In this document: positions 1,234-57,808 of the stretch, in pieces | Layout of the letters: the number at the start of each line of letters is the position of its first letter | Position numbering within the stretch: position 1 is the stretch's first letter | NCBI GenBank assembly: GCA_964187785.1 | Contig: OZ076410.1 | Coordinates: 69,192,001-69,256,000, forward strand | From: Amphiscolops sp. MND2022 | Lineage: Eukaryota | Length of the DNA stretch: 64,000 nucleotides | Reading direction: 5' to 3' | Notes under the pieces: model-generated | What the model was told of the DNA's origin: nothing | Seen by the model: the letters and a program-made list of their open reading frames with translations, nothing else | Databases searched by the model: none | Program-made: the position numbers and the translations under genes

Positions 1234-2730
1234 TGTAGCAGGCTGCCGCCTGTGATGGCATTCTCTACCGAATAACGCCTGAAAGTGACCAAACTAACCC
1301 AGGACCGGGGGTCTTGCCCATATAAACTCTTCTGCCTACCTAAAAAGGTTTACAATAATAAACTGATGCAAGTTAATAACTTTGAAACCTGTACAATCAC
1401 TATTTTATACATCATGTATTTTCTACAATTTGACCAAAGGTCAACTGGACGGCAACTCCACATTTGAACTGTGACAAGTGCTGATTTGATACCATTTTAT
1501 ACAGCATACTGCAATCTTGATGTGCTAGAGAACAAAGTTGGAAGTGCCTTAATATACAGCGATACAAGCATGAAAGCGTGAAAACGCACTTAGCTGGTAG
1601 GTAAACTACTGCATTCAAACCGACGTGTAGTCAAACCTTTATTTCAACCAATCAGAACGCAGTATGGAATATCCACTGCAGTCATACTGACGCTAGGTCA
1701 GATTTGATGTATAGATAAATATTAAAGTTGTCGCCTCATGAATTGTTGCCTTTGAAGTAGAATTAGTTTCATGTAAATTGACATGTTGTTAGTTTGATAC
1801 TATTTATAACCTCCCCCCTAAAGTGACGCAATGTCACCACCCCCAGTCTATTTTTGAATCAGATGACGTAATTACTGAATTCGAGCTAAATTTAGCCTGA
1901 CCTTAATCCAAATTTAGTAACATGACGTGCGAATTTAGACTTGTCATGCTGTTACAGCTATTATTACGCGGAAATTGATCTGAAAGGAATCATTCTTTGA
2001 TAAACGAAATACTCTCAATACGCAACTTTGTTCATTTGTAACTTTCACCAATTCATTGTTGAACTGAATTTCCTCTCTTGAATATGCCTTCAACTAGAAA
2101 GCAGAAAGCTAAAGAGAAACACTCACGTCAGCTGACGTTATGTCAGACATTGAAAATCTTGATGTTATGTTAGGGAGTTATCAAAGGGATAACAGTAAAA
2201 TACAGGATAGAACAAGTGAAAACGGAATAGACTTAGGGTCAAATGGACGAGAAGATAGTTCAAATCAAAATGAAAATAACTACAGGTCTTACCTGAATAC
2301 TAACCTGAGTGAAAATAGTTGTTTGACTGTTGAAACTAGTAGAGCGATTAGCTCAGAAATTTCATCACAGATGTCAAGGAAGTTTGAAGAATTGCAATCT
2401 AGCCTAAACTCCCAGATATTGGACGTTATAAACACTGCAATTGACACTAGAGTGTTGCCCAGCATCAAAAATGCTGTAAGGATACATAATTCAGCAAAAA
2501 ATACAAGTTTGGACCTTCGGTCACACGGACTGCATCAAGATAATGCAGCTCAAGGAAATTCTCAGAAGGACCTTCGGTCAAATAGACTGCATCCAGAAAA
2601 TGCTAATATATCGGTCCAGGATGCTCAGAATGAGTTTCCAAGATTATTATCGATTAAAAGTAGCCAAACAAATTGCTGTAGAGAGAATTCAGTTGATTCT
2701 CACAAAGTGGGGATGAATTTGGTTACGACA
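1234..2730 (+). repeat. E1 5' LTR (1,497 bp, TG...CA)
   Basis: Starts TGTAGC, ends ...ttacgaCA directly before TGGTG. Positions 1234-2088 match 23420-24263. Confidence 0.85.
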
Positions 2731-2741
2731 TGGTGCCAACC
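2731..2741 (+). promoter_or_regulatory. E1 primer-binding site, apparently damaged by a 7-bp deletion
   Basis: TGGTGCCAACC directly after the LTR CA. E2 has (C)GGTGACAGGA at the same position. Inserting GACAGGA restores the gag frame from the ATG at 2730 to the codon at 2783. Confidence 0.6.
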
Positions 2742-3834
2742 TTACCCCTCCAACGGCCCCTGAGTTTCTGACTGGACGGCCCGTGCAATCCCGAAATAAA
2801 ACTCCGCATCAACAGTGTGTCAACAATGACACGCTTGACACAACCATCCCGGCACAAATACCAACAGTCCCCACCAATAGCCGAGATGTACCTTCCGAAC
2901 CACCAGTAGACCCCATCAATCGACTTGCTGACGTGATTATGGGCATGAACAACAAACCATCGGCACAGACACTGATGATACGACCAGTCAGTACGACCAC
3001 ACTGACATTTGATGGCAAATCTGAAAAATTTGAACTGTTTGAAGATCTTTTTCACACGATGATAAAAATGCAACCGGACAAGATCGAAACAATGAAAATC
3101 AATCATTTTCATTCACTGCTGCGCAAAAACGCACTACAGACATTCCGTAACATCAATTCAGCCAATAGACAAACCTTGGAAGATATACTAGCGGTCGTCC
3201 GTAGGAAATTTGTCAAACCTGAGTCCCAGGCAACCGCCAAACACAAATGGCATAAACTGATATTTGACCCGAATACTATGAAATTGCCTGATTTTCTTGA
3301 AGAACTTAATTAAGATGCTGAAAAAGCCTTTGGGGAACATGCTCAGGCAATGATTGACAGTCTGCTTTATGCTAAATTGCCGCCCAAACTGAAACGTTCA
3401 GTCAATATGGTGGGACTTGAAAATGCTACCTACGACGAGATTGTCACACACCTTGAACGTGAATTGGAGTTGAATGGACTTGAGGAAGGCGACGACATTC
3501 ACGTCCCGACAATGTCCACAGCCCCGACAGCAACACGACCGGGTACTGGCCTCCTCTCATCCGACATTGACCCAAATATTACTTGCAATTATTGCAAAAA
3601 ACCTGGGCATGTCTAAGATGACTGCCGAAAACTCAAAAGAAAGGAGGAACAACGCCGCAATGACGGGCAGGATACCAAGAAAATTTATCGAAAATGTCCA
3701 ACTTGCTACAAAACGAACCACTCGGCCGAACGATGTCGGAAAGGCGCAGGAGCGCCTTCTAAAACAGAGGAAACTACCATGAGTCAAGATGACTCCATCA
3801 ATAACAACCCCACCACCTCCATTCTCAAAAACCC

Positions 3835-3844
3835 AAAAAACTAG
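3835..3844 (+). promoter_or_regulatory. Putative -1 ribosomal frameshift site A AAA AAC followed by the gag stop
   Basis: AAAAAAC (3835-3841) then TAG. The same heptamer plus TGA occurs in E2 at 32421-32430. Confidence 0.55.
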
Positions 3845-6800
3845 ATTCGCCACGACTCTACTTTAAAGAAAAACTACGCGTCAGAGAAAATACAATTTCT
3901 GACCCTTCCACTATTTATTACACTGAATACTATTCATGACTTAAAGAAATTTCATCAGCTGACTGGCAGCAGCAGGTGAAAAATACCCCTACCGAACTAC
4001 ACGACTTGGACTACCAGTCCGATAGACAGCAATACGATAATAATACTATTCGTCCTCTCCCGCTCATAGATAACTACCATCCCTATTATCTAGACCCAGA
4101 CTTTGGCTTTGACCCCTACTGGGACACTCAGACCTACAACCAACATCATCTTCATTTCTATAACTATTTCCATAAAAATTTTACGGAAATAGAACCCGAT
4201 TCGTATGAAACTGACCAAAATCTCAACGTGGCCCTGACCGAGGCTCTTGTAGACCCATGGCAAAGAAAATGGACTGCCACCAATCTAGCAATTCAAGATG
4301 AACCAATGAAGGCGTCTTCTCAAGTCGGACCTGTGGTCACGCTAACTGCAACGGTGGAAGAACGATTTGTGAACACGCTAATTTCACGAGACGGTGAACC
4401 CGACTACGTCCCGTTGACTATCAACCTCGAACTAAAATACAAGAGACGCAAGCTCTACTTTCTAACGGATTCTGGCGAACAAAAATTAGATGGCCTTGTA
4501 GACACGGTAGCCCTATCTAGCGCGATCCCAGAAGCTCATCTACGTAAAAATCCGAGTATTAGCCCCTCAGTCGATAATCAAAGAGGGCCCAGCTCCAAAT
4601 TTCCAAGTTATGGTTGCTAACGGACACCTGGAAACTCCAAAGAGCACTGTCGAACTCAAATTTGAGGTAGGAGACATCAATTTCCATGAGATCTTTATAG
4701 TTATGGAATTACATACAAGCCCGTTATGTGGCCTTTCCTTCCTCCAAAAGAACAATACTATAAAAGATATGCGACAGGACATCCTACATTTTCCATTCTT
4801 TTCCTTGCAATTGAAAACAGCGGACCACAAGTGCACCAACGTCATGGAACCTATCTGCGCACGGGAGGATATAACTATTCCCCCAATGACAGACACATGG
4901 TCCCCATGTATTCCCAACTATATGATGACACAACTGTCACCGGTATCCTTCAACCAAGCAATGACCTTGCAGAAGATGGAGATATAACTTTCTGAGCTGC
5001 TCTAGTCACCCTGACCCATGGTCAGGTTACATTTCATGTGAACAACTTCACTGATCAATCTTACACCCTCAAAAGAGGTTCGCACATCGCAAATTTCTCT
5101 GTACTCACACCAGAACAGATGAAATACGTCAAACCCATTGACCCGGTGACCACATGGCACCTTTTACAAGACAATCCCGAAAATGCTGCCTATTATGGCA
5201 GCAGTCTGATCAAATCTCCGAAAACTGCCGACGACAGCGAAAACTATTGGTTCCCTACCCCAGAAGAACCTGGAGACACTCAGACACATACACCGATCCA
5301 ACAACGGATTATGAAGGAATTACGAAACCTCCAAGAATTAGAGAAACTTAACCCTCAAGATGGCCCTGAGTCTAGACAACAGTTTCTCGCTAACTTTGAT
5401 TGAGCTGACTCGACACTAAATCCAACAGAAATCGTCCAAATTGAAGAGCTGCTTGTCGAATTTCACGACATTTTTGCTCGACACCGCTTTGATATAGGCA
5501 TGAATGAAAACTTCGAGGTCAAATTGACTCCTAAAGATGACTCCCCTGCCTATAGTGAAAACTTGCCCACACAAAATTAATCTCAAGGAAGATATCCTTG
5601 TTGAACTAGCACTATTACATAGATATGGGAATATATCAACCCTCCCGTTTTCCAAATATGCATGTCCCATTTTTGACCTGAAAAAACCTAATGGCAATCT
5701 ACGACTCTTGGTCGACATCCGAAAGATCAATAATTTGATCTCCGATGACTACATCAACAATAATCATCCTGCAGTACGTTACCAGATGCCGCGCAACAGA
5801 TGGCAGGCGAACGATTATTTTGCAAGCTAGACTGTTCTCAAGCATATCACTGCCTACAGATGACTGACCGGAGGTCAATTGAGATGCTGGCTTTTAACTT
5901 TGCCAGCGGAACCTTTGCCTATCGCAGACTTGCGCAAGGTCTGAGTAGGGCCCTGTCAGCCTTCTCGAGCTTTATGCGTGAATATCTGGACAAGGTGATC
6001 AAAGCAGACTAATGCGCTCAGTACGTAGATGATATTGGACTTGCTGCCAACGTTGCTACGCAACTTATCAACAATCTGCGGGCAACCTTTGAGTGCATTA
6101 GGACCGCAGTTCTCAAACTAACGATGCATAAATGCCATTTTGGAGCCAGAGATATTGACTTCCTGAGACGTACCATCACTCCTACTCCTGAAGGTGTGCG
6201 GCCACAACGACCCAGGGTCCAAAACTTCCTAGAGAAAACGAAACTTCCAAAATCCAAAAAAGCACTCCAAAGATAGTTGGGCTTCCTGAACTACCATCGT
6301 AATTACATCCCAAGACTTTCAGAAAAACTGACTCCATTTTTCAAACTACTGAAAAATGACGCTAAGGTCACAGTGACGTCTGATCTGTTAGAACAATTCA
6401 CCGAGATCAACAAATCTCTTGACCGATGTTGTGAACTTTCCCTCAAACAACCACTGCCCAACAAACAAATAGCATCAATGACTGATGCTAGTTTTTCGGC
6501 AGCAGGTTATGCAGTTCTCATCGAGGATGATCCGAAGAAAAAATATAGTTCAATGCGGAAAGCTTTGCACCAGTAGCATATGGATCCAAGACCTTTAGTC
6601 CCGCCCAATTGAAGATGTCCATCTATGCGAAAGAATTCTTAGCAATTCTCTTCGCTTTTAAAGAATTTGAACACATCTTTTGGGGGACCCCGAAACCGGT
6701 GATCATACTAACAGACAACAAGTCCGTAACTCGCTTTGTTCAAACTAAAATCATTCCACCCACTCGGTGGATCGCGTTTGACTATGTTATCCAGTTCACT

Positions 6801-9026
6801 TTCACCATCGCCCATTTACCAGGCAAACACAACACCGCAGCTGACTATTTGTCACGCTTAGAAATCTGTCCTAAAGAGAAACTCATATCCCGCACACGGG
6901 AGGACATATCGACGTCGCCCATCGAACTCAACGTCCAATCGGCTGGAGTAACTGAATAACTGAAGAGGACCAGATATTTTTTACAGACGACGACGACGGA
7001 ACCGAAGAGCAAATATGGCAACGGAAAAAGGACGCCAGGTCCCTTCCGACAAACCAAGTACCTGACATTTTCCTTGAAAAACTCAGTGTCCACAGCAGTG
7101 CTTGTTCACAACAGACAACCTTACAAAAGCTGACAAATATAACAACCATGACAATTGAACAGCAAATTGATGTAATTTTGCACCAAAGACGTCCAAAACT
7201 GCAGAAAGAAGACTATTCGGAGACGATTCTACAGCAGGATATACGTTACCGACACTACTGCAGTCAACTTGACCGTCTGTCCGTGCAGGAAGACATCGTC
7301 ATCAGAGGTTATTATGACGAAACAGGAAACGTACAATATCACCAGGCACTTTTATCAAAACACCTAGTGTCAGAATTACTCCAATCACTACATGGAACGG
7401 CAAATAAACATCCAAGAATTTCCAAGATGCTTTATGAAATCCGTCAAAAATACTACTATCCAGGAACTGCAAAGATCGTCTTAAAATGGGTCCAAGGTTG
7501 TGAAATATGCATGAAAGATAAAAGAACCAAAAATCAATCAATAACGCCGGATCTACTCAATTTGCCCGAATGGGATCTTGGTTCTGAGGACACCTTACAA
7601 ATTGATCTTTCACCTAACCTCCCACCGAGTGGAGGATATGAAAATATCATTACTGCACTTGACGGCTTCTCCAGATACCTATTCACCTATCCTGTGGTCG
7701 ACGCCTCAGCCTTTGGCACGGCAAAAGTAATCATCGATATCATGACGAGACATGCCTACCTACCGACTACCCTGATTACTGACAAAGGAACAGCATTTAC
7801 ATCACGTCTAGTTGAAGAGGTTGCAAAAATGTTGGGAATTCAGATTAAATGTGCAACAACGAAGCAACCAAAAACAATAGGTAAATTAGAGAGAACTCAT
7901 GCCAGCCTTAAGAGCAACCTTAAAATGGCTTCTGGTGAATATCGTCGCCAATGGGCCTACAATCGTCGCCTACCATTGGCTGTTCTCAATTACAATACTA
8001 CTTACCATTAAAGCATCGGATGTGAACCTTCCAGGATTTTTCATGGAAGAGTACCATATAACATCCTAGACCATCGGTTAGGACTAAACTAGAAACCAAA
8101 GATTCTACCTACAGCAGATTTTGCTGAAGAATTACAAAGACGTACTCAAATTCTCATAGATAAGACAAAGAAAAACATCATGCACTCGTACTTAAAGTAT
8201 AAAGAATATTATGACCGCAAAGCCAAAGCAGCCCCATTACAACAGGGTGACTATTGTTTTATACTACAGCCACTCCACTAGCAGACCATCAAGGGTCAAA
8301 AATTCCGTTTCAAGAATTCCGGTGGATTGGACCACATGTCATCGAAAAGGTTTTACCGAATGAAAACTACATCGTCCGAAAACTCAACTCTAATAAAACA
8401 CAAATCTTACACCGCATACGATTACGAAAATATACTCCAAATACAGAGGTACGTGATGTTCGTCCGGAAGGAAACTTACAGCTGATGATGAAATTATTAT
8501 ACCGCAGGATGATCTTTACATTACTTCCTAGGAGACAGAATTTGACGATTTTCCGCAAAATTCCGAAATCAAAAACGCTTCTGACGATTTTCCAATGAAT
8601 TCTGATCAACGGGACACTATACTTACAAATTTGGACCTTGCGGCCCACTCGACGCGACGAAAATACTAATGACGCTACTACTGAGCAGCGTGGAGATGAA
8701 CTTGACGAATTGGACCTTCGGTCCGCTGGACTGCAACGCGATACTAACTCAACTGAGTCTGAGCAACTGTCTGAACAATCGGCAGAGAATGCGGCTGACG
8801 CGGACCATAGGTCCACTGGACAGCAATCGACTACTGATTTCGAAACTGGTCCGGCCACCTCTAGGATCACCTCAGAGGCAGGAGCTTCTGACTTTTGAAA
8901 TCCGTGCCCGTTTTATCAGACAAAGAAACAGATGATTCAGTTGTAGAGAATGAAAGTCCCAGGGGAGGAAAATATAATTTACGCCCTAACCCTACCCCCA
9001 ACTTCACTGATGAATACAGATACTAG
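3845..9026 (+). pseudogene. pol: E1 pol: aspartic protease, RT, RNase H, integrase (multiple stops and frameshifts)
   Basis: Protease LVDTVALSSA (DTG motif mutated, ~4495-4525). RT: KLDCSQAYH and QYVDD (~6022-6033). RNase H: TDASF, YAKEFLA, LTDNKS. Integrase: HHCC finger, LQIDL, ITDKGTAF, GKLERTH, WIGP. Ends PNFTDEYRY* at 9026. Confidence 0.95.
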
Positions 9027-9282
9027 AAAGAAAAGTTGAATTCATTGCCCCCCCCGGATTCTTTTCCAATAAATAGTATCTTTATGGGGCTTGGTCCGAC
9101 TTGCAGACAGAATAAGACTTGGTTTCAAAATTGACACAAACAAATGACCAACAATACAAATACGCAACCTAACTGATATAAATAACAGTATAAAGAGGAA
9201 ACTGAACAAATATGCAGTCTATAAACAATTGTACATGTGTACAATTAAAAATTAGAACAACTTGCGGACAACAAGTTCTTAA

Positions 9283-12200
9283 CAGACTGTGCCAACTCCT
9301 TCCTATCAAGGAAATGAGTCATCTTCTTAGCTGATCCAGACGTCTTGGACTTGTCTGGCTTGCTGACAACGGCAGGTTTGGAAGTTGACGCTAAATCTTG
9401 ACTGCCACTCTATGCTCTACTAGAATCCAACTGCTCTAGAATACCAGCGAGACAAACAAAATCCACACCGTCCCAAGGAATATTTACATCTGAAGTCCCA
9501 ACCCCAACGAAAGTAGGCTCGAGTCGGAGGAAAGCAGCAATAGAATTGTCGGAACTAACAGATTCCATACCATTAGTCACGTTCTGAAAGTAGGATTGAA
9601 CGGGCAATACCCCATCCACAAAACCACTCGTTGGATTTTCAGAATCCACTGAGCCAAATTTAACAGGAGGAAGAGTCTGAAATGGCTCGTCTAGACACAA
9701 GCTAGCAAAACGGAAAAGCTTCTGTAACAATGGTCGGCTATGGAGGGAAGGCTGCTCAATGAGGAAATTAACAGTATCTCGGATGAAGAGGACCGGCTGA
9801 TGCAATTCGGGATACTTACGCCGGAGTTCGTCAACAAATGACCTGTATTCCTCGTGACACTCAGCCTCTTGACCAGAAAAAAAGTATCCTCGTAGCCGGA
9901 AACTAGTGAATAGCTGAGTAAAACAATAGTCGGCATGAGAGAGAGGGTCATGTAGTAAGGTATCCAGATCAAAGCTTCCAAGCCCTTTCATCAAATCCGT
10001 CGTGAGAGACTTTTGGCTCTGCACTGTACCAAATAAATGCAAAATGTAACTCCGGGCAGATCTTCCAAAGTCATCTTTATTTTTGTTGGCCAGAGCATCC
10101 ATTGGTAGACCCTGATTCTGCTTGTCACGTAGGTCTCTTTCAGCCATAGCTCTACAAGGGACCCGCAGTCTGAAACCCAGCTTGATCCTCGAGATAAACT
10201 CAGTAACTGTGAGAGCAGTAACCTTCTTGATGTCGAGATGCAAGATGGCTAGCCTATTCTGGTCGTCTGGCAGATCTTGGGGATTGGTACACCTTCGAGC
10301 TAACTTGAATAAATACTAACATAACTCCCGGTACAGATAAAATACTCGGTCCTTGCGTCCACTGAGGTTGATGGTGAAACTGTTAGCGTCTAAACATTAC
10401 AAGATTTGTTTTGACTGCAGTCAGGAGGACGTTAGGTACACTAAAGGGAATCACATCAGGAAATCACGCTAGACTCCATTGACCAACATGTAAAAGCGTT
10501 GCCTTAGGAAATTTCAACTTTCGTCAACAATCTAAGCATACTAACAATCCCGCGCTAAACACTGGAAGAGTTCGAGTTTAGTGGTGAACAAGACGTCGTA
10601 CATAATAGTCCCCACCAGGTGCTGAGGCTTAAAGGAAATAAAACTATGACCTAACGTCAAGGCTCTAGTAGACTTTTAGTACTTTGGTCACGAATGAACT
10701 ACCTGGTTCTTTACTCCTTGCATTTCTTGGGGGAGAGAATTCGAACTCAAGAAGTCCAAGACAGAACTCCAGTTGGCCAGTAACTCCTCGCATAACACAT
10801 GCAATTTGGCAAAACCTAACTTGCAACTTCGGATTGCCTAATACCAAACATGAAACATGAATTGACAAACTAGTGAAGACCAGACTACATGTCAAAACAG
10901 TTAACTAGCCTTTGACAGCTCAGGTGCTAAAAGGGTACAATCTAAGTTGAGGCTCCCTCCAAGGAAGACGATCAGGTACTGTAGGACTGACACAAAGTCA
11001 ATCCGCCCAAAGACACAATGGGTACGCTTGTTCATAAGTTTCTGAAGAGAAAACTCCTCGAAATTCTGTGGGCTGTGGATGGCTAAGGGAATAGGGAACT
11101 GTTGTCCACTGATTACACTAATTCCAATGAGAATCCACTGCAAGAAACTAGAGAGGGTCTTGTGGCGATGGCAGCTAAAAGTCCGGAAAGTAAGGCAACT
11201 TCTGCTGAGGTTCTTCTTAAGACCCGTCCGGTTCGTTTCGGGAGAACGCGACAAAGCTGCTTGTCCTTCCAGAATCTCAAATGGAGGAAGAGGAAAACAC
11301 CCCTCACTTCGAACTCCATTGCGTAGAAACCAGTAGACACGACGTGGTGACCAATATCATCGAGCATTTGGACGAATATGTGATGGAATAAGACCTGAAA
11401 CACAAGATAATTACGACTAAACAAAGGAAGAGCATACTCAATGGGACAAAGTAGTCAGAATGACGACTAGTCAAATTAGATGCAACCAATTATGATTATA
11501 CATTAACGCAACTTCAAACTTTGATAGTTATACTACAACAAGGAAGTATCTACGGAATTGTTCGAAAGAACTTACGGAAAGTCTCTCCTTGCCCCAGTTG
11601 AAGTCCGAGAAGAGCGCTTGGTGGTTGACAACCTTTCCAACATCCTTCCACAATCCTCTAAGAAGCCCAAGGTCACCAATTGACGGAAGAAAGTGGCGAA
11701 GAATTGAAATCTGGACCCTAACTCGATTTTCCGAGAAGGACATTATGTGGGTATTACCAGACTTGGCTTCATGGTAGTACCTCAGTTTTTCCCCGATGTC
11801 CACTAATATAGCGTCTTTAAATTGTTGATATTCCTTTTGTAAATCATTTGGCGATAGCACCTGACCCTTTCCGTCTCTGACCTGGTGGTGTATTGCTTTG
11901 GTAAGAGGATCTTCGACTGCAAGGTGCTCATATCGCCACCTCTGGTCTTTGCGGAGGTGACGTTCGGTAGAATAATGCCTCGAAATATCTTTGACGCCTC
12001 GACCGTATATTGAGATGTTCCCCTTACAAATTTGACAATAAAATTTGTAAGGGTTCCACCTTGGGTCCAACGGACCAGACACGAATGCGCGCGCCCAAGT
12101 CATCCCATTTAACAGTTCGTCTCTGAGGATCTTACTGGATCTAGTCACAGCTCTGCGAGGGTTTTTCACTTTACCCTTGGGCGTGGGCTTCTTGCGGCCC

Positions 12201-15200
12201 TTCTTTTGGTCTTAGATGCTTCTCGCTTCAATTCAGCCAACGTCTGGTTTCCGGGACTTTCACATGCGCCAGAGTTAGGGGTACCGATGTCTGTTTTACT
12301 ACTGCCGGGAACGGGAAGACTGGGTACCTGGATGGCTGACAAACGGCTAGAACAATTCCCAGTGTCTTCGTCACCCCAAAAGTCTCTTCCACTGGTAGTC
12401 CCTCCCTCTACTGTCGATGTCCCGTCCTACATTATCTATCCCGAATGACGTCAGGTCTCCTTCAGATCCAGTCGTACATGAACGCACAGACCTGGGTCGG
12501 TGCATCTTCGTCTTCCGCATCGTGGGTCAATCTCGGATGCTCAACTGGCTGGCACGGGTAACTACACTATTCAGCATCTCAAACAAAGCCCTGGCCGTCT
12601 CGTCTGCAACGATGCGGAGAATATGGCCTACCTGTTCTTGGTTGAGGGAAATAGTATGATGGCCCTGGGGTAAACTGAATGAATGAGCCTTTTCAAAATA
12701 TGTACGGATGAGCTCCTGACTGTGGATTGAAAGGGGAGCCGGTCCTCCAGAACGCTGAATGACTTCATCAGGGGATACCTTATCTGATCCTTCATTAAAT
12801 CGAGGGGCAAAGTTGCAAACTGGGGCAGCAATAGCGTCAGCGAGTGTAGACCTCTTGGAGTGTTCTGACTCTAGGTCTGTGTTCGCCGGTCCTTCAATCT
12901 CACCAGTCGACATAAACTCTTCCTCTACAGACACCGCATTGGACGGTGGATCCACGTGACCTGATGCAGAGGCACTACTCAGAACACGATGTTCCAGGGC
13001 AGGGGAGAACGCAAACTCAATTGTAGGGGTTTCAATGTTGACCTTACTCTTGGGAAGTTTACTTCCTTGTCCTAGGCCTTGAACGCTAGGATGTAACTGG
13101 GAGGTGGAGAGAGGAATATCATCCTGTGTTGGCTCATCAGTTTGTGCAGAAGTCCCTATGAATTGGCCGACGGGAGCAAGACGGGTAGCGTCACTATAAC
13201 TGGCTTTCGGTGATGAACGGGGCTCGACTGTCCCAGATTGAACTTTACCAGGATTCATGGCTTCGACTTTTCTGGTACAATATGCGCCTACGCTCTCATC
13301 AGTGCCACTACTGCTGAAAACAAAACCTCCTCTGCGGTACATCTCAGCTAATAGAGAAATGCATAAATAAATGCGAAATGTAACTCCGGGCAGATCTTCC
13401 AAAGTCATCCTTATTTTTGTTGGCCAGAGCATCCATTGGTAGACCCTGATTCTGCTTGTCACGTACGTCTCTTTCAGCCATAGCTCTACAAGGGACCCGC
13501 AGTCTGAAACCCAGCTTGATCCTCGAGATAAACTCAGTAACTGTGCGAGCAGTAACCCTCTTGATGTCGAGATGCAAGATGGCTCGCCAATTCTGGTCGT
13601 CTGGCAGATCTTGGGGATTGGTACACCTTCGAGCTAACTTGAATAAATACCAACATAACTCCCGGTACAGACTGTGCCAACTCCTTCCTATCAAGGAAAT
13701 GACTCATCTTCTTAGCTGATCCAGACGTCTTGGACTTGTCTGGCTTGCTGACAACGGCAGGTTTGGAAGTTGACGCTAAATCTTGACTGCCACTCTATGC
13801 TCTACTAGAATCCAACTGCTCTAGAATACCAGCGAGACAAACAAAATCCACACCGTCCCAAGGAATATTTACATCTGAAGTCCCAACCCCAACGAAAGTA
13901 GGCTCGAGTCGGAGGAAAGCAGCAATAGAATTGTCGGAACTAACAGATTCCATACCATTAGTCACGTTCTGAAAGTAGGATTGAACGGGCAATACCCCAT
14001 CCACAAAACCACTCGTTGGATTTTCAGAATCCACTGAGCCAAATTTAACAGGAGGAAGAGTCTGAAATGGCTCGTCTAGACACAAGCTAGCAAAACGGAA
14101 AAGCTTCTGTAACAATGGTCGGCTATGGAGGGAAGGCTGCTCAATGAGGAAATTAACAGTATCTCGGATGAAGAGGACCGGCTGATGCAATTCGGGATAC
14201 TTACGCCGGAGTTCGTCAACAAATGACCTGTATTCCTCGTGACACTCAGCCTCTTGACCAGAAAAAAGTATCCTCGTAGCCGGAAACTAGTGAATAGCTG
14301 AGTAAAACAATAGTCGGCATGAGAGAGAGGGTCATGTAGTAAGGTATCCAGATCAAAGCTTCCAAGCCCTTTCATCAAATCCGTCGTGAGAGACTTTTGG
14401 CTCTGCACTGTACCAAATAAATGCAAAATGTAACTCCGGGCAGATCTTCCAAAGTCATCTTTATTTTTGTTGGCCAGAGCATCCATTGGTAGACCCTGAT
14501 TCTGCTTGTCACGTAGGTCTCTTTCAGCCATAGCTCTACAAGGGACCCGCAGTCTGAAACCCAGCTTGATCCTCGAGATAAACTCAGTAACTGTGAGAGC
14601 AGTAACCTTCTTGATGTCGAGATGCAAGATGGCTAGCCTATTCTGGTCGTCTGGCAGATCTTGGGGATTGGTACACCTTCGAGCTAACTTGAATAAATAC
14701 TAACATAACTCCCGGTACAGATAAAATACTCGGTCCTTGCGTCCACTGAGGTTGATGGTGAAACTGTTAGCGTCTAAACATTACAAGATTTGTTTTGACT
14801 GCAGTCAGGAGGACGTTAGGTACACTAAAGGGAATCACATCAGGAAATCACGCTAGACTCCATTGACCAACATGTAAAAGCGTTGCCTTAGGAAATTTCA
14901 ACTTTCGTCAACAATCTAAGCATACTAACAATCCCGCGCTAAACACTGGAAGAGTTCGAGTTTAGTGGTGAACAAGACGTCGTACATAATAGTCCCCACC
15001 AGGTGCTGAGGCTTAAAGGAAATAAAACTATGACCTAACGTCAAGGCTCTAGTAGACTTTTAGTACTTTGGTCACGAATGAACTACCTGGTTCTTTACTC
15101 CTTGCATTTCTTGGGGGAGAGAATTCGAACTCAAGAAGTCCAAGACAGAACTCCAGTTGGCCAGTAACTCCTCGCATAACACATGCAATTTGGCAAAACC

Positions 15201-18200
15201 TAACTTGCAACTTCGGATTGCCTAATACCAAACATGAAACATGAATTGACAAACTAGTGAAGACCAGACTACATGTCAAAACAGTTAACTAGCCTTTGAC
15301 AGCTCAGGTTCTAAAAGGGTACAATCTAAGTTGAGGCTCCCTCCAAGGAAGACGATCAGGTACTGTAGGACTGACACAAAGTCAATCCGCCCAAAGACAC
15401 AATGGGTACGCTTGTTCATAAGTTTCTGAAGAGAAAACTCCTCGAAATTCTGTGGGCTGTGGATGGCTAAGGGAATAGGGAACTGTTGTCCACTGATTAC
15501 ACTAATTGCAATGAGAATCCACTGCAAGAAACTAGAGAGGGTCTTGTGGCGATGGCAGCTAAAAGTCCGGAAAGTAAGGCAACTTCTGCTGAGGTTCTTC
15601 TTAAGACCCGTCCGGTTCGTTTCGGGACAACGCGACAAAGCTGCTTGTCCTTCCAGAATCTCAAATGGAGGAAGAGGAAAACACCCCTCACTTCGAACTC
15701 CATTGCGTAGAAACCAGTAGACACGACGTGGTGACCAATATCATCGAGCATTTGGACGAATATGTGATGGAATAAGTCCTGAAACACAAGATAATTACGA
15801 CTAAACAAATGAAGAGCATACTCAATGGGACAATGAAGTCAGAATGACGACTAGTCAAATTAGATGCAACCAATTACGATTATACATTAACGCAACTTCA
15901 AACTTTGATAGTTATACTACAACAAGGAAGTATCTACGGAATTAATAGAAAAAACTTACGGAAAGTCTCTCCTTGTCCCAGTTGAAGTCCGAGAGGAGGG
16001 CTTGGTGCTTGACAACCTTTCCAACATCCTTCCACAGTCCTCTAAGAAGCCCAAGGTCACCAATTGACGGAAAAAGTGGCGAAGAATTGAAATCTGAACC
16101 CTAATTCGATTTTCCGAGAAGGACATCATGTGAGTATTACCAGACTTGGCTTCATGGTAGTACGGCAGTTTTTCACCGATGTCCACTAATATAGCGTCTT
16201 TAAATTGTTGATATTCCTTTTGTAAATCATTTGGCGATAGCACCTGACCCTTTCCGTCTCTGACCTGGTGGTGTAATGCTTTGGTAAGAGGATCTTCGAC
16301 TGCAAGGTGCTCATATCGCCACCTCTGGTCTTTGCGGAGGTGACGTTCGGTAGAATAATGCCTCGAAATATCTTTGACGCCTCGACCGTATATTGAGACG
16401 TTCCCCTTACAAATTTGACAATAAAATTTGTAAGGGTTCCACCTTGGGTCCAACGGACCAGACACGAATGCGCGCGCCCAAGTCATCCCATTTAACAGTT
16501 CGTCTCTGAGGATCTTACTGGATCTAGTCACAGCTCTGCGAGGGTTTTTCACTTTACCCTTGGGCGTGGGCTTCTTGCGGCCCTTCTTTTGGTCTTAGAT
16601 GCTTCTCGCTTCAATTCAGCCAACGTCTGGTTTCCGGGACTTTCACATGCGCCAGAGTTAGGGGTACCGATGTCTGTTTTACTACTGCCGGGAACGGGAA
16701 GACTGGGTACCTGGATGGCTGACAAACGGCTAGAACAATTCCCAGTGTCTTCGTCACCCCAAAAGTCTCTTCCACTGGTAGTCCCTCCCTCTACTGTCGA
16801 TGTCCCGTCCTACATTATCTATCCCGAATGACGTCAGGTCTCCTTCAGATCCAGTCGTACATGAACGCACAGACCTGGGTCGGTGCATCTTCGTCTTCCG
16901 CATCGTGGGTCAATCTCGGATGCTCAACTGGCTGGCACGGGTAACTACACTATTCAGCATCTCAAACAAAGCCCTGGCCGTCTCGTCTGCAACGATGCGG
17001 AGAATATGGCCTACCTGTTCTTGGTTGAGGGAAATAGTATGATGGCCCTGGGGTAAACTGAATGAATGAGCCTTTTCAAAATATGTACGGATGAGCTCCT
17101 GACTGTGGATTGAAAGGGGAGCCGGTCCTCCAGAACGCTGAATGACTTCATCAGGGGATACCTTATCTGATCCTTCATTAAATCGAGGGGCAAAGTTGCA
17201 AACTGGGGCAGCAATAGCGTCAGCGAGTGTAGACCTCTTGGAGTGTTCTGACTCTAGGTCTGTGTTCGCCGGTCCTTCAATCTCACCAGTCGACATAAAC
17301 TCTTCCTCTACAGACACCGCATTGGACGGTGGATCCACGTGACCTGATGCAGAGGCACTACTCAGAACACGATGTTCCAGGGCAGGGGAGAACGCAAACT
17401 CAATTGTAGGGGTTTCAATGTTGACCTTACTCTTGGGAAGTTTACTTCCTTGTCCTAGGCCTTGAACGCTAGGATGTAACTGGGAGGTGGAGAGAGGAAT
17501 ATCATCCTGTGTTGGCTCATCAGTTTGTGCAGAAGTCCCTATGAATTGGCCGACGGGAGCAAGACGGGTAGCGTCACTATAACTGGCTTTCGGTGATGAA
17601 CGGGGCTCGACTGTCCCAGATTGAACTTTACCAGGATTCATGGCTTCGACTTTTCTGGTACAATATGCGCCTACGCTCTCATCAGTGCCACTACTGCTGA
17701 AAACAAAACCTCCTCTGCGGTACATCTCAGCTAATAGAGAAATGCATAAATAAATGCGAAATGTAACTCCGGGCAGATCTTCCAAAGTCATCCTTATTTT
17801 TGTTGGCCAGAGCATCCATTGGTAGACCCTGATTCTGCATGTCACGTACGTCTCTTTCAGCCATAGCTCTACAAGGGACCCGCAGTCTGAAACCCAGCTT
17901 GATCCTCGAGATAAACTCAGTAACTGTGCGAGCAGTAACCCTCTTGATGTCGAGATGCAAGATGGCTCGCCAATTCTGGTCGTCTGGCAGATCTTGGGGA
18001 TTGGTACACCTTCGAGCTAACTTGAATAAATACCAACATAACTCCCGGTACAGATAAAATCCTCGGTCCTTGCGTCCACTGAGGTTGATGGTGAAACTGT
18101 TAGCGTCTAAACATTACAAGATTTGTTTTGACTGCAGTTAGGAGGACGTTAGGTACACTAAAAGGAATCACATCAGGAAATCACGCTAGACTCCATTGAC

Positions 18201-21077
18201 CAACATGTAAAAGCGTTGCCTTAGGAAACTTCAACTTTCGTCAACAATCTAATCATACTAACAATCCCGCGCTAAACACTGGAAGAGTTCGAGTTTAGTG
18301 GTGAACAAGACGTCGTACATAATAGTCCCCACCAGGTGCTGAGGTTTAAAGGAAATAAAACTATGACCTAACGTCAAGGCTCTAGTAGACTTTTAGTACT
18401 TTGGTCACGAATGAACTACCTGGTTCTTTACTCCTTGCATTTCTTGGGGGAGAGAATTCGAACTCAAGAAGTCCAAGACAGAACTCCAGTTGGCCAGATA
18501 CTCCTCGCATAACACATGCAATTTGGCAAAATCTAACTTGCAACTTCGGATTGCCTAACACCAAACATGAAACATGAAATGACAAACTAGTGAAGACCAG
18601 ACTACATGTCAAAACAGTTAACTAGCCTTTGACAGCTCAGGTGCTAGTAGGGTACATTCAAGTTGAGGCTCCCTCCAAGGAAGACGATCAGGTACTGTAG
18701 GACTGACACAAAGTCAATCCGCCCAAAGACACAATGGGTACGGTTGCTCATAAGTTTCTGAAGAGAAAATTCCTCGAATATCTGTGGGCTGTGGATGGCT
18801 AAGGGAATAGGGAACTGTTGTCCACTGATTACACTAATTGCAATGAGAATCCACTGCAAGAAACTAGAGAGGGTCTTGTGGCGATGGCAGCTAAAAGTCC
18901 GGAAAGTAAGGCAACTTCTGCTGAGGTTCTTCTTAAGACCCGTCCGGTTCGTTTCGGGACAACGCGACAAAGCTGCTTGTCCTTCCAGAATCTCAAATGG
19001 AGGAAGAGGAAAACACCCCTCACTTCGAACTCCATTGCGTAGAAACCAGTAGACACGACGTGGTGACCAATATCATCGAGCATTTGGACGAATATGTGAT
19101 GGAATAAGACCTGAAACACAAGATAATTACGACTAAACAAATGAAGAGCATACTCAATGGGACAATGAAGTCAGAATGACGACTAGTCAAATTAGATGCA
19201 ACCAATTACGATTATACATTAACGCAACTTCAAACTTTGATAGTTATACTACAACAAGGAAGTATCTACGGAATTAATAGAAAAAACTTACGGAAAGTCT
19301 CTCCTTGTCCCAGTTGAAGTCCGAGAGGAGGGCTTGGTGGTTGACAACCTTTCCAACATCCTTCCACAGTCCTCTAAGAAGCCCAAGGTCACCAATTGAC
19401 GGAAAAAGTGGCGAAGAATTGAAATCTGAACCCTAATTCGATTTTCCGAGAAGGACATCATGTGAGTATTACCAGACTTGGCTTCATGGTAGTACGGCAG
19501 TTTTTCACCGATGTCCACTAATATAGCGTCTTTAAATTGTTGATATTCCTTTTGTAAATCATTTGGCGATAGCACCTGACCCTTTCCGTCTCTGACCTGG
19601 TGGTGTAATGCTTTGGTAAGAGGATCTTCGACTGCAAGGTGCTCATATCGCCACCTCTGGTCTTTGCGGAGGTGACGTTCGGTAGAATAATGCCTCGAAA
19701 TATCTTTGACGCCTCGACCGTATATTGAGACGTTCCCCTTACAAATTTGACAATAAAATTTGTAAGGGTTCCACCTTGGGTCCAACGGACCAGACACGAA
19801 TGCGCGCGCCCAAGTCATCCCATTTAACAGTTCGTCTCTGAGGATCTTACTGGATCTAGTCACAGCTCTGCGAGGGTTTTTCACTTTACCCTTGGGCGTG
19901 GGCTTCTTGCGGCCCTTCTTTTGGTCTTAGATGCTTCTCGCTTCAATTCAGCCAACGTCTGGTTTCCGGGACTTTCACATGCGCCAGAGTTAGGGGTACC
20001 GATGTCTGTTTTACTACTGCCGGGAACGGGAAGACTGGGTACCTGGATGGCTGACAAACGGCTAGAACAATTCCCAGTGTCTTCGTCACCCCAAAAGTCT
20101 CTTCCACTGGTAGTCCCTCCCTCTACTGTCGATGTCCCGTCCTACATTATCTATCCCGAATGACGTCAGGTCTCCTTCAGATCCAGTCGTACATGAACGC
20201 ACAGACCTGGGTCGGTGCATCTTCGTCTTCCGCATCGTGGGTCAATCTCGGATGCTCAACTGGCTGGCACGGGTAACTACACTATTCAGCATCTCAAACA
20301 AAGCCCTGGCCGTCTCGTCTGCAACGATGCGGAGAATATGGCCTACCTGTTCTTGGTTGAGGGAAATAGTATGATGGCCCTGGGGTAAACTGAATGAATG
20401 AGCCTTTTCAAAATATGTACGGATGAGCTCCTGACTGTGGATTGAAAGGGGAGCCGGTCCTCCAGAACGCTGAATGACTTCATCAGGGGATACCTTATCT
20501 GATCCTTCATTAAATCGAGGGGCAAAGTTGCAAACTGGGGCAGCAATAGCGTCAGCGAGTGTAGACCTCTTGGAGTGTTCTGACTCTAGGTCTGTGTTCG
20601 CCGGTCCTTCAATCTCACCAGTCGACATAAACTCTTCCTCTACAGACACCGCATTGGACGGTGGATCCACGTGACCTGATGCAGAGGCACTACTCAGAAC
20701 ACGATGTTCCAGGGCAGGGGAGAACGCAAACTCAATTGTAGGGGTTTCAATGTTGACCTTACTCTTGGGTAGTTTACTTCCTTGTCCTAGGCCTTGAACG
20801 CTAGGATGTAACTGGGAGGTGGAGAGAGGAATATCATCCTGTGTTGACTCATCAGTTTGTGCAGAAGTTCCTATGAATTGGCCGACGGGAGCAAGACGGG
20901 TAGCGTCACTATAACTGGCTTTCGGTGATGAACGGGGCTCGACTGTCCCAGATTGAACTTTACCAGGATTCATGGCTTCGACTTTTTTGGTACAATATGC
21001 GCCTACGCTCTCATCAGTGCCACTACTGCTGAAAACAAAACCTCCTCTGCGGTACATCTCAGCTAATAGAGAAATGC
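9283..21077. repeat. Near-identical internal tandem amplification, structure A-X-B-X'-A-X-B-X'-B (periods ~4,385 and ~3,333 bp)
   Basis: ORF sets repeat at 10665/15049/18382 and 12527/16910/20242. The ~305-bp X segment recurs at ~10031-10336, 13365-13670, ~14415-14720 and ~17748-18053. Confidence 0.95.
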
Positions 21078-21900
21078 ATTCAGCTTCCTTCTTGACTTGA
21101 GGGCTAGACTGTTGTCCGGGAGTGGCTGGTTTTGCTGGCAAAGGTTTCTTCAGGCTCGGTTGAAGATAAGGTGATCTCAAACATCTCAATGGCATCTTCT
21201 GTTCGATCGCTATCCTGTTCAGCGACGTCAACTCCAGTTTGGTCAATTTCCATATTCTCTTCAGTGTTCTGAGCTGGTTGGCCGTTTGAAATTTCTCCTG
21301 AACGGAAAGAAATAAACGAGCGCGGTTGACTTGAGCGCAGGCGACTGCATAAAAATCCATCTTACCGCTAAAATAAGAACCTTCCGGAAGTGAGTTTGAC
21401 ACAATGTTCATGCCTTTAGCAAACATTTCATGATGGAGGAAGTTAAGAAGTTGGAATTAAACCCTGATCAAGTTTACTTCTAACACAATTAAAAGAACCA
21501 ACCTGATGTCTTGTCCACAGGAAAAGGCAGAATTGATGATCCTCAGTTTGAGATTTCACGACAGAAGAGAAGTTACAACCCAACAGGAGGGGTGTCGTTA
21601 TGTCAATGTGACTGCAGTGCTTGGATGGGTAGAGCTGAATTGCCTGTGATCCGCAAGGTAACAAAAAATTTGAATCTGGAAAACCCGGGTAACAATACCG
21701 AATTTATCAAAAGGACGGAACTAAATTGAGAAGACAATAAATCAAAACGTTAAAACGTTTGATGTGAATTGAGCTTGTCAGTTAGTTGAAACACACGACA
21801 GAAATAGCTATAAAACCCAAGGTCAGAGAGACTACACGAGATACAAAACGTAAATCAATATAGTTCAAGTGATGCTGCTCGGGGATGGAATTACAACGAA
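9410..21900 (-). pseudogene. E1 antisense multi-exon gene: low-complexity N-terminus, BED-like zinc finger, long C-terminal body (putative hAT-like fold); central part present in three copies
   Basis: ORFs 20242-21426, 19288-19884 / 11528-12169 (FYCQICKGNISIYGRGVKDISRHYSTERH = C-x2-C...H-x5-H), 11113-11424 and 9410-10243 read colinearly on minus. GT-AG intron at 11395-11575. One copy would be roughly 1,400-1,500 codons. The 5' end is approximate. Confidence 0.75.
11395..11575 (-). other. Phase-0 spliceosomal intron (181 bp) in the E1 antisense gene; copies at 15779-15959 and 19111-19291
   Basis: Minus-strand GTAAGTT donor after FNWGKERLS and cttgtgtttCAG acceptor before VLFHHIF; the frame is restored on splicing. 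Confidence 0.8.
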
Positions 21901-22686: not shown

Positions 22687-23511
22687 ATGTCTCTGCAATT
22701 CTCTATTGACGATCTCGCTAGACCGCTCGTTAGTCTTTCATATCAATCCTCAGATGAGGACATGGAGATAGACTCAGTCTCTGTGACTGATAGTTTTGAT
22801 AATCCCGATTCTGATGATGACATTCAAGTTCTCGCCTGTTTCCGGTAAAATATTCCTTTCCCCTCTCAATTGGCAGGAGGACGCGCTATGGCAACTGAAC
22901 TGACAAAGTGTCTCAATTACCTCAGTTTGCTCCATGAGGACTTAACTGACTCAATTAGCACTTTTACTGAACCTCCCCAGGAGCTGCTCGACTGGTGCGT
23001 CGGTGGTCCCCCAAACAATGACCACGATTGCTACACAGATGACCACCCAATCGCACAGTGCAGCCAACTCAACCCGATTCGAGATTCCCCCTGGTCAACC
23101 CCACCAGAAAAACAAGCCCCCGCTGCCAATTTCGTTAACCAACAATACCGGAACGACGATGTTGACTCATGGTATGGCAATGCACACATAACTGGACTGG
23201 GAATTAGTGTCAGCAGTTCCTGCGGCCTTCAAAACGAAACATTCCACAGAAGTTGTGTAGTTTGTGGCAAATCGTTTGAGGACATCAGGACCGAGATCAC
23301 CCTGGTGTATCTGGAGCAGACACACATCGCAGGAGAAACATATGAACAACGTGCAGCACGTCGCGACGCCTTCCAAGCTGGTATGAAAGCCCGGTCTTTC
23401 ATCCTAGTCCCCCGGGGAGTGTCGCAGGCTGCCGCCTGTGATGACATTCTCTACCAAATAACGCCTGAAAGTGACCAAACTAATCCAAGACCGGGGGTCT
23501 TGCCCATATAA
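22687..23511 (+). pseudogene. E1 sense ORF3 (~274 codons, one internal stop), acidic N-terminus and CxxC; runs through the PPT into the 3' LTR
   Basis: ATG at 22687 (MSLQFSIDDL...) is in frame with track ORF 22870-23511 across a single TAA near 22846. Contains SCVVCGKSF. The last ~30 codons lie within the LTR. Confidence 0.6.
23414..23419 (+). promoter_or_regulatory. E1 polypurine tract (short)
   Basis: GGGGAG immediately before the 3' LTR start TGTCGC at 23420. Confidence 0.65.
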
Positions 23512-24263
23512 ACTCTTCTGCCTACCTAAAAAGGTTTACAAAAATAAACTGATGCAAATTAATAACTTTGAAACCTGTACAATGACTATTTTATACATCA
23601 TGGATTTTCTACAATTTGACCAAAGGTCAACTGGACGGCAACTCCACGTTTGAACTGTGACAAGTGCTGATTTGATACCATTTTATACAGCATACTGCAA
23701 TCTTGTTGTGCTAATTTGGAAGTGCCCTAATATACAGCGAGACAAGCTTGAAAGCGTGAAAACGCACTTAGCTGGTGAACTACTGCAGTCAAACCAACGT
23801 GTAGTCAAACCTTTATTTCAACCAATCAGAACGCAGTATGGAATATCCACTGCAGTCATGCTGACGCTAGGTCAGATTTGATGAATAAATAAATATTACA
23901 GTTGCCGCCTCATGAATTGTTGCCTTTGAAGTAGAATTAGTTTCATGTAAATTGACATGTTGTTAGTTTGATACTATTTATATCCTCCCCCCTAAAGTGA
24001 CGCAATGTCACCACCCACAGTCTGTTTTTGGAACCAGATGACGTAATTACTGAATTCGAGCTAAATTTAGCCTGACCTTAATCCAAATTTAGTAACATGA
24101 CGTGCGAATTTAGACTTGTCATGCTGTTACAGCTATAGATAAGCGGAATCTGATCTAAAAGGAATCATTCTTTGATAAACGAAATACTCTCAATGCGCAA
24201 CTTTGTTCATTTGTAACTTTCACCAATTCATTGTTGAACTGAATTTCTTCTCTAGAATATGCC
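23420..24263 (+). repeat. E1 3' LTR, truncated just after the gag ATG
   Basis: Matches 1234-2088 up to aatatgCC, then switches to repeat R (ccaccgagacgc). Confidence 0.9.
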
Positions 24264-36619: not shown

Positions 36620-39600
36620 GCCACACAAACAATAGATACACAACAGTGGCAACAAACACACAAAACTAGGATCACTTACAATAAATCAAAAATAACAAAG
36701 TCCCAGTATATCAAAAATGCAGTTGCATGCGAGAACTTTTTTCTGTGTACGACATCAGATTCTTTGTCTTCATTGGAACCGTTCTTTTGATTCTTTTTAC
36801 TACTTCTCGGTTTCTTTGGAGGTCCAGGCTTCCCAACATCTTTTTTGCTGACCGACGTCGCAGGAATAAAAACCCGTGATGATGCTGCTCCACCTTCACT
36901 AAATTTAGACACAGAGCTGAACTTGTTACTCGCTTCTGACCCGGAAGTTCCAACATTTGCACGAGCGAGGCGGCTAGCCCTATTACTATCCTTGTAAAAA
37001 CTTTCGGAAGACTTACACCGTTACAGTAAAAACGCACAAAACAGTTTCTGATAGTCCGCAATAAATGAATTCACAACACGATCACAAAAATCTTTCCAAT
37101 CGTCATCCCAGGTGTAATGAAGAACACCCCGGCATTTGCGATGGCACTCCGATCAGCATCTAGAGTCCAACCAGTGAAGAAGAGCTGGTGATCATACCCC
37201 GCACTCATCACGTAGGTCTGCATTGATCGCAAACATCATTGAAAAGCGGCTTCACTCAACAAGCTGCCACTTAGCTGAAAAGATTCCTGTGCATACGAAA
37301 CACGAGGCAAACCAATAACTAGGCAGCATAACTTCAATACACGACAAACGTCCGGGCGTGAATGAAAATTAAAATCACGTAGGAAGTACTGGACTATATC
37401 GATGCCTGTGGGATCGACATCTGACTTCTCGTGTTGTATCGTCTTATCTACAACGTAACTACTAAACTGTGCAACTACTTAATTTGACTCATCACAAGAC
37501 AACAGCCCACAAGTAACCAGCACTTTTGTCAGATCAGCAAACAAAGAAAAAAACAGCATGCTCATCACCCTCCAGTAGCATCTCAGGACTAAAACTACAA
37601 AGCCCCTTTGCGACTTTTGAGGACACACTTGAATTGCCCAGCACAACCGTATTCAATCGGTCCAGAAAGTCTCGACGTTGTGCACGGAATTCCTGAGCTT
37701 CAGTTGTCTTACCCGCGGACAGCTCACGTCAAAAATCACATTTGTCCAGAAACATGTCGATATAAGCAATCGCATAGGCAACAAAGTTCTCCACTTCCAT
37801 GTAATCCTTCCAATCATGAATACCGGGGAGAAACGATGGCACTCGAGTTTTCAACAACAAACAGTAGATAAAGTTGCACATCTCACTGTATCCATGGAAC
37901 CCGTATTCGCTTCGTCGCTGACGCAATTTCACGAATTTGATATGAGCTAAATCAACAGCAAACTTACAAAAAGAAGAAAACTTGCTGACAACTTAAAAAA
38001 AGACACGATCCAAATACTATAACCGTCAATCAAACGAAACAGACACACTCAGGACAACCGAGACAAACCGCAGCAAGCCAAAACGCTGCACGATCATATT
38101 ATCGGCAATTAAATGCCAATCTGTCCCCGTCATCTGACAAAAGAAATACATACGGATAACCCGATGATAAGAAAGAGCCCACACAAAATCTCGAACTTAT
38201 ACTAACACTAGCGGCCTTGCCCAGTGCCTCAGGATTCATGGTACACCGGATGTAAGGACGAATTGATGGCCAAAAATCAATCAACTCTGTCAACAGCTCA
38301 CAAGACTCACTGAAATTGACAGATCCTTTCCGGAGACTTCTGCGCAGAACGATATTGTCTTCAGTCCATTCCCCATAGACAGCGTGTTTGAGTCGGACGA
38401 CAACGTACTCCACTATGATAGTAATTTCCACCATCCCTAATATGTCTTCATGTGCTTGCCGGATACATTGCAAAACGACCTTCAGTGAAACCTTGAAACA
38501 CTACAAAACGACGACCATCCGTACAGTTATCGCCCACCACTTTCCGCAAACTGGGACTACCTCCATGAACAGCAAGTGGCATTTGCGTTTTGTCCAAACT
38601 GAACAACTCGTGACAAAGGTACCAATTCCGACTTGGAGACGGGCTGATATAGTGGCTCACTCCCTACAGAGACTTTCTTCAGATGCCTACACAGACTTTC
38701 TCCTCAATTTGCACACTGTACACACTTAAAGGTAGCATTGCCTGTGGTCAATAAGCGAACCACTTGCGGAGCAAGACTTTGTCAAAGGAAGGACTGAAAC
38801 AACAAGGATAACCAATGAAATACAATCGCGGAAAACAATCGCGGGATCTCCCAAAGACAAAAAAACGTTAGTAACTTACCACGGTCTCAGATCGCCTCCA
38901 ATTAAAGAAAAATCGGGTTTCTGTTTCCCAACGAGAGACAGAATTGGCTCCATAGACGTCGGAACAAGGCAAAGTCTCTTCCGCAACGCAACAGGTCACA
39001 CAAACAGCCCTCGAATGTCATGAAGGGCACCTTCGAGTCCACACCGTAGTGTTTTGGAAGTAGCTCTTCAGGATAGGGATATCCCTCACCCAACTCCACG
39101 AAAGGCTTCGCACTCGCTTATCCGCTTTTGCAGTAAACTCAGTAAAACCTACAAAAAACACATACCGGCATAACCCCGAAGAGGCAAAAGAAGAAAGGCA
39201 GACGCAAAAACAACATGTAACAAAGAAGCCACTACAATTATAAAAACCACCAACAACCATTTACCATTTCGAATGGTCCGGATAGTCCGGGAATTGACTT
39301 CTTCGACAATCTGCTCCGGACTCAGGAGCATCCAATTTTGAAGACTCAAAGCCATGTCTAACAAGTCTTCGTCATGACCTATAAAACCATTACCCACATA
39401 AAACTAATTTACCCGAACGGTCTTCGAACCCCATTGCTTTATGTTGCAATAAAAAACAAAACTAACTATTCCACCCTCAGGGCGCAGGAGTTGGTTGTGG
39501 AGGCGGAGGAAGAGCAACTTTCTTAGCACGTTTGGGAGGCGTCGAAAAACTCACAGTGAGGGTTTGGCCTCGACGAGCTGATGAACCTACTACAAATTAA

Positions 39601-57800: not shown

Positions 57801-57808
57801 ACAGCTGC

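Follow-up and report, generated by a model that had tools for sequence, protein, structure and literature searches.

A large lineage of Ty3/Gypsy LTR retrotransposons in the 1.07-Gb animal genome that we searched carries an extra gene, antisense between integrase and the 3' LTR, and this cargo gene is a conserved part of the lineage under purifying selection. We propose, with slightly more confidence than doubt, that it is an intron-bearing gene likely derived from a hAT transposase whose catalytic residues have been lost, and that its protein would act as a nuclear DNA-binding accessory keeping element copies expressed. The window, by which we mean the whole 64,000-nucleotide stretch of DNA analyzed here, contains a broken member of this lineage. 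A preliminary description of the window had suggested a catalytically altered hAT-type transposase domesticated by a retrotransposon; our analysis supports most of that description and a phenomenon larger than it first outlined.

The carrier lineage is Ty3/Gypsy by its LTRs, primer site, PR-RT-RH-IN order and short target duplication (Table 1 for the window copy). Self-comparison of the window located the two LTRs, which are 94% identical to each other, and intact relatives have the Gypsy domain order protease-RT-RNase H-integrase. Target duplications of 5 bp were found in four of four elements with both ends located; two further loci lack one end. It is the retrotransposon that moves the cargo gene, which, as the preliminary description had held, is not a free transposon. 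The longest exact inverted match flanking the gene in 20 elements is 9-11 bp, as in shuffles, and no 8-bp duplication flanks it, whereas the element ends carry the 5-bp duplications.

The position and orientation of the gene are fixed in 59 of 60 sampled loci. Forty of these were chosen from cargo match lists and span 28-97% identity; in 39, integrase lies on the opposite strand about 1.2 kb past the end of the cargo gene (tail-to-tail), and the remaining locus adjoins the gag start of a deleted element. The reverse test used 20 integrase-picked elements from 150 listed matches (plus strand, open frame above 1,700 aa). All 20 contain the cargo gene, and 14 have no break in any of exons B-E or in the stretch of exon A that encodes the finger. 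The lineage is young and expanding, with at least 150 integrases at 98-100% identity among the matches listed. Among 15 copies of the window's family, median dN/dS is 0.04-0.18 over seven coding segments (pairs with dS above 0.15, which are 72-87 of 105); when two introns are read in frame, the values are 0.55 and 0.70. Between families the measure is saturated, each cargo exon leaving a single usable pair out of 276.

The cargo gene has five coding exons, A-E, and its introns and splicing are predicted. In aligned genomic copies, third-position variation falls in blocks edged by conserved splice signals, and intron positions with GT/GC-AG boundaries are the same across families, even where exon E identity is as low as 28%. 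Junction 1 is read through without interruption in eight unnamed database relatives, and junction 2 in one; these may be relatives without that intron rather than cDNAs. One locus considered as an intronless cargo copy (L031) was rejected, since it is a copy with a deletion. Joins across the candidate 5' intron yield no consistent frame. The upstream motif ACTTCCGGAAG is one that we take to be ETS-like.

In the window, self-comparison reveals three tandem minus-strand cargo units, 98-99% identical, between 9282 and about 21500, whereas six other loci of the window's family have a single unit in the same place and orientation. Only copy 3 retains the family start codon. All three copies are broken and have in common the stops and frameshifts given in Table 1 for exons A and B of copy 1, or their equivalents, so the triplication came after decay. 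The window copy is a pseudogene, a fossil of the gene.

The preliminary description overlooked both the introns and this pseudogene state. It listed an ordered series of motifs in 10300..12200, and those that we located do lie on the minus strand, but they do not form one frame: YKFYCQIC (12049) and STGFYAMEFEV (11337) are in different frames. The frame changes between motifs are mostly due to GT/GC-AG introns, plus real lesions in the window copy. Its C-terminal string PLLQKLFRFASLCLDEP exists, although at 9733 and so outside that interval, whereas the basic string it quoted, beginning KKKG, was not found; the basic stretch reads instead as given in Table 1, from about 12208. The strings cited from the decayed relatives E2 and E3, VYSVQIEE (38723, minus strand) and KSLSFQ (62901, plus strand), are present within about 40 nt of where weak profile matches place strand beta1 of these relatives, although their register cannot be confirmed.

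Table 1. Features of the carrier element, its cargo gene copies and distant cargo relatives in the window
Feature	Position	Strand	Description
5' LTR	1234..2730	+	TGT...GACA, then TGG primer site
U3-start inverted repeat	1238-1252; 23424-23438		GCAGGC-N4-GCCTG; overlaps sense ORF
gag-pol	2084..9025	+	Ty3/Gypsy; broken in window copy
Inverted repeat at cargo stop codon	9226-9247	-	short; two TGTA motifs
Cargo copy 1, exon E	9245..10389	-	helical insertion region and C-terminus; stop codon 9247-9245; premature stops 10318, 9412
Predicted intron 4	10390..10545	-	GT...AG, phase 1
Exon D	10546..10627	-	
Predicted intron 3	10628..10702	-	acceptor degenerate in copy 1
Exon C	10703..10837	-	region of hAT RW motif (absent)
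Predicted intron 2	10838..10909	-	GC-AG in window's family, GT-AG in most others
Exon B	10910..11394	-	predicted RNase H-like core; both catalytic Asp and CxxH substituted; in copy 1, stop 11115, frameshift near 11088
Predicted intron 1	11395..11575	-	GTAAGT...CAG
Exon A remainder	11576..13364	-	low-complexity N-terminal region, basic stretch, finger, helical region; in copy 1, stop 12529, frameshift near 12400, 5' end missing
BED-like C2H2 finger	11957..12097	-	W...C-x2-C-x16-H-x5-H
Basic NLS-like stretch	12170..12208	-	QKKGRKKPTPKGK
Extra partial exon E piece	13365..13671	-	junction of copies 1 and 2
Cargo copy 2	13672..17747	-	99.3% identical to copy 1; same lesions
Cargo copy 3	17748..21360	-	exon E truncated; broken; start codon 21360
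Conserved upstream motifs	21381..21508	-	CAGGTTGG and TGATCAGG (candidate short 5' intron), ACTTCCGGAAG
Sense accessory ORF remnant	22849..23511	+	extends into 3' LTR
3' LTR	23420..24263	+	shortened by later insertions
E2	37206..39108	-	decayed distant cargo relative; antisense to RT at 34173-34883
E3	62242..64000	+	decayed distant cargo relative; runs past window; tail-to-tail with integrase there

The preliminary description had the protein catalytically altered, and unbroken relatives of the window gene indeed have no DDE triad. hAT enzymes require DDE and CxxH (PMC4763223, available portion). In a control set of 63 hATs, D, D, E and CxxH are kept in 60/61, 63/63, 63/63 and 63/63 sequences, and the R of RW in 63/63. 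The corresponding positions in the cargo protein were located from the order of strands and the motifs beside them, not by residue-level superposition. On this assignment the first catalytic position is Glu in 49 of 73 sequences and Asp in at most one; an alternative register gives 65 Glu and 3 Asp. Two residues ahead of the first position, 65 of 73 sequences retain a Glu. The second position is Ser in 62 of 84 sequences and Asp in at most one, and the place of CxxH reads S/C-V-F-G, with His in none of the 84. The RW motif is absent from 39 exon C sequences, and 36 sequences of the C-terminal motif have no conserved Glu. As judged from these alignments, the cargo protein has lost D/D/E, CxxH and RW and is predicted to be a nuclease-dead transposase.

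The finger and the basic stretch, unlike the catalytic positions, are nearly invariant. The four finger ligands C/C/H/H are kept in 184/193, 185/193, 203/208 and 197/208 homologues (95-98%). One homologue search returned 102 sequences; 94 of these could be scored, and all 94 have a basic cluster ahead of the finger, compared to 7 of 2827 background windows. The finger and basic motifs are thus no chance pattern. Another search returned 1,342 homologues at E <=0.001, and no name is attached to any of the 102 or to any of the best 150 of the 1,342.

The body of the protein comes in many versions. At least nine divergent cargo versions ride on near-identical integrases, and the 20 integrase-picked elements contain nine cargo types (below 85% DNA identity in exon B), across all of which the finger is almost identical. 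Cargo and integrase trees, for which 24 of 40 loci were usable, have a patristic correlation of 0.92 at depth and conflict at well-supported nodes; the pol tree rejects two cargo-defined groups (10 elements, AU p 3e-53 and 1e-86). Each cargo type keeps its own 350 nt of upstream DNA, except that two types have one in common. We tested for a cognate pairing of cargo and LTR and rejected it: cargo types are mixed across the neighboring sense ORF and U3, are not linked to the LTR, and are uncoupled from U3 type. No array of repeated 6-8-mer motifs was found in U3 or the spacer of 13 elements. The uncoupling and the missing array count against a family-specific lock of the VANC kind. The sense ORF and U3 modules shuffle too, so exchange is not specific to the cargo and need not mean diversifying selection. 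To a broader proposal we give about an even chance, namely that a DNA-transposon enzyme with its introns and promoter has become an obligatory, swappable module, of which a single young pol lineage carries nine or more ancient versions, and that one DNA motif is read by a fixed finger while the bodies vary so as to engage host chromatin factors or escape them.

We suggest that an intron-containing hAT element inserted backwards into a Gypsy ancestor and then lost its ends and its active site. The introns would have survived because the packaged RNA is the opposite strand, on which the splice sites are not presented. Integrated copies would transcribe the gene from its own antisense promoter, marked by the conserved ACTTCCGGAAG and the candidate 5' intron, and the transcript would then be spliced. 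The basic stretch would import the protein of about 1,250 residues into the nucleus, where the finger, nearly the same in all versions, would read a single short motif shared across the lineage. The inactive body of the transposase would serve as a scaffold and the S/P/T/E-rich N-terminus would recruit host factors, and the bound protein would sustain expression of the element. Because the cutting residues are absent, the protein likely serves the element as a DNA-binding helper. We infer this accessory function by analogy: the Hermes BED domain binds short subterminal motifs separately from catalysis (PMC10368747, available portion), and the antisense protein of Grande is located in the nucleus and has a promoter of its own (PMC7264820).

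A protein of the same origin might instead act at integration, binding the DNA end of the element or its intasome and tethering it to particular chromatin or sequence sites. Transposases bind ends and capture targets, and all cargo versions have the finger in common. In addition, U3 opens with an inverted repeat in nearly all families (all 20 elements of one set and 19 of 20 of another; Table 1), and in some members of the window's family this repeat has undergone a two-sided synonymous change with pairing kept. However, the repeat may be an RNA or single-strand hairpin. The cargo protein would come from a separate antisense message and not from the packaged polyprotein, and the free recombination against integrase seen in the AU tests is unexpected for a tight partner. 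The four target duplications, moreover, have no common sequence. We regard a role in integration as unlikely.

We give still less credence to a self-limiting repressor of transcription or copy number, again of the same origin. Retrotransposon products that exert self-control are known, such as truncated Ty1 Gag (PMC6719617, available portion), and a dead transposase sitting on element DNA could silence the element. However, the gene is kept in a young and strongly expanding lineage, and a repressor acting in trans would favor copies that drop it, whereas all 20 sampled copies retain it. That no sampled member of an expanding lineage has lost the gene is better explained by a benefit to the carrier, as in the accessory role that we favor, than by repression.

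That accessory role is proposed for a protein of hAT origin. For structural comparison, we modeled P0086, a natural protein that covers exons A and B, with AlphaFold from a 71-row alignment, giving a mean pLDDT of 51 and mostly low confidence in the N-terminal 280 residues. Exon B is modeled at pLDDT 75-85 as helix, three strands, helix, strand, helix, an RNase H-like fold. Hermes accounts for 9 of the top 10 Foldseek rows for the finger plus exon B model (best E 0.0065) and ranks first in VIA with Z 7.3 and rmsd 3.9 over 142 residues, compared to about 75-100 residues for most other RNase H folds. The predicted fold thus agrees with the preliminary description, with Hermes as the best match. 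An important caveat is that the structural scores fall within the range that common arrangements reach: kinases, integrases and actin-like folds are within 1 Z unit of Hermes, and sugar kinases and integrases tie it in Z, although they align about half as many residues. A wide VIA search with the N-terminal model placed RNase H-like folds, with Hermes absent, among the top 50. Exon E folded alone (pLDDT 69) aligns in VIA with Hermes 368-609, the colinear part, over 164 residues (Z 4.8, rmsd 6.3, rank 4 of 48,161); for this exon Foldseek and PF05699 searches gave no match and an ESM Atlas search no usable one. ESM Atlas neighbors of the N-terminal part are hAT-type families (0.87-0.93).

Pfam searches of the cargo protein found no hAT family and no zf-BED match at the finger, where model confidence is 56-83; PDB profile and single-sequence searches and a search for exon B homologues found nothing. 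Searching the genome with PF14291 gave no match, and cargo profiles matched none of 65 genomic hAT loci. Comparisons in hhalign with 63 hATs of ZMYM/Buster type and with six of Ac type from the genome reached a probability of 0.6% at best, and one run, at a probability below 1%, aligned exactly the beta1 motif. Because the sequence profiles give no significant hAT match, hAT origin is likely and not proven; resting on modest structural scores and the language-model lead, it is in our judgment quite probable. Several hAT families of the genome do have long open frames in which DDE-type motifs are intact (L194-L199, L201, L222, L226), but none is detectably close to the cargo.

Alternatively, the cargo could be a real accessory gene whose RNase H-like domain came from another DDE superfamily or from a host gene. 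The missing sequence match to hAT and the closeness of the competing folds in Z would allow this. However, two non-overlapping parts match Hermes independently, in order and with the longest alignments, the predicted architecture runs from finger through helices and RNase H to a helical insertion, and the ESM Atlas neighbors are hAT families; we consider an origin outside hAT distinctly improbable. A nested independent hAT transposon or neutral passenger, which the broken window copies, triplicated after decay, might suggest, is refuted, barring free-standing copies with TIRs, by the fixed position and orientation, the low dN/dS and the absence of TIRs, 8-bp duplication and catalytic triad.

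Antisense extra ORFs between pol and the 3' LTR are known from Gypsy elements of plants and fungi, including Retand (TRP28, PF04195), maize Grande (gene23), rice RIRE2 and fungal Boty (PMC11963269; PMC7264820). The cargo gene resembles them in position, antisense orientation, near-universal presence in copies and conservation, and by position it belongs with the aORF-3R class (antisense pol-3' LTR accessory ORFs). Retand/Grande-type ORFs also have a likely nuclear DNA-binding role and their own promoter, both of which are predicted for the cargo. In contrast to these ORFs, whose origin is unknown and which have no similarity to other transposable elements (PMC11963269; PMC7264820), the cargo gene is from an animal, has at least four predicted introns, encodes about 1,250 residues, and has a fold that can apparently be traced to a hAT transposase. 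The text of PMC11963269 nowhere uses the word 'intron', and PF04195 did not match the cargo at E up to 1, or at 0.05 in another scan. Reviews consider the origin and function of antisense extra ORFs of LTR elements unknown and an origin from nested transposable elements unsupported (PMC7264820; PMC11963269). The present case would give such an ORF a traceable origin in a DNA transposase, likely hAT, and illustrates how an intron-containing gene can ride a retroelement.

Compared to Hermes and other hATs (PDB 4D1Q, 2BW3, 8EDG; PMC10368747; Kat1, PMC4763223; available portions), the cargo has the same predicted order of finger, helical region, RNase H-like core, helical insertion and C-terminal region. 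It differs in having no DDE, CxxH, RW, TIRs, 8-bp duplication or PF05699 match, in its long low-complexity N-terminus, and in moving inside a retrotransposon. Host-domesticated transposases (ZBED/ZNF862/FAM200 type, and FHY3/FAR1 from MuDR) are likewise transposase-derived DNA-binding proteins under purifying selection, the binding of the cargo being presumed; they are single host genes, whereas the cargo is maintained by a mobile element and exists as hundreds of copies of many different versions. Precedents for accessory factors are truncated Ty1 Gag and VANC of VANDAL elements, the latter also proposed to act on the element's own DNA (PMC6719617, available portion). As described there, VANC is family-specific and needs a tandem motif, unlike the cargo with its common finger, uncoupled U3 and no array found. 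Bdelloid rotifer LTR elements are also animal and Gypsy-like with modular extra genes after pol, but the ORF3s reported in the available portion of PMC5408684 are esterases, exonucleases or env-like, none of them transposase-derived; PMC6431247 likewise describes animal LTR elements that have captured extra ORFs (available portion). In our literature search, no LTR element was reported to carry a transposase-derived gene, although subscription journals, Repbase or supplements could hold one. If our reading is correct, one class of transposable element has domesticated the enzyme of another, giving a new kind of retrotransposon accessory factor, and the many unbroken natural versions with one conserved finger make its target and function directly testable.

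Several further features of the lineage were observed. The short inverted repeat at the cargo stop codon occurs in 9 of 20 elements in addition to the window and is possibly a 3'-end processing signal. The second accessory ORF is in sense orientation, divergent from the cargo gene, and encodes about 290-320 aa in relatives (e.g., L174:3336-4301); it gave no match in a Pfam search, was present in all 20 elements examined, and shuffles independently of the cargo. The gag frame begins about 650 nt inside the 5' LTR and continues through the primer site, so each 3' LTR bears a gag fragment of about 200 aa. A pyrimidine-rich ...CCCGCAG precedes the 3' LTR in the young lineage (L123-L141 group, L236-L255), and a purine tract, GGGGAG, in other families. 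Head-to-tail tandem elements with common LTRs lie about 14.5 kb apart (L123/L174; G000:C12:14845904-14875372). In the window, the 3' LTR is interrupted by three tandem units of about 1.7 kb (24433-29692), which are weakly similar to 57806-58392 on the opposite strand.
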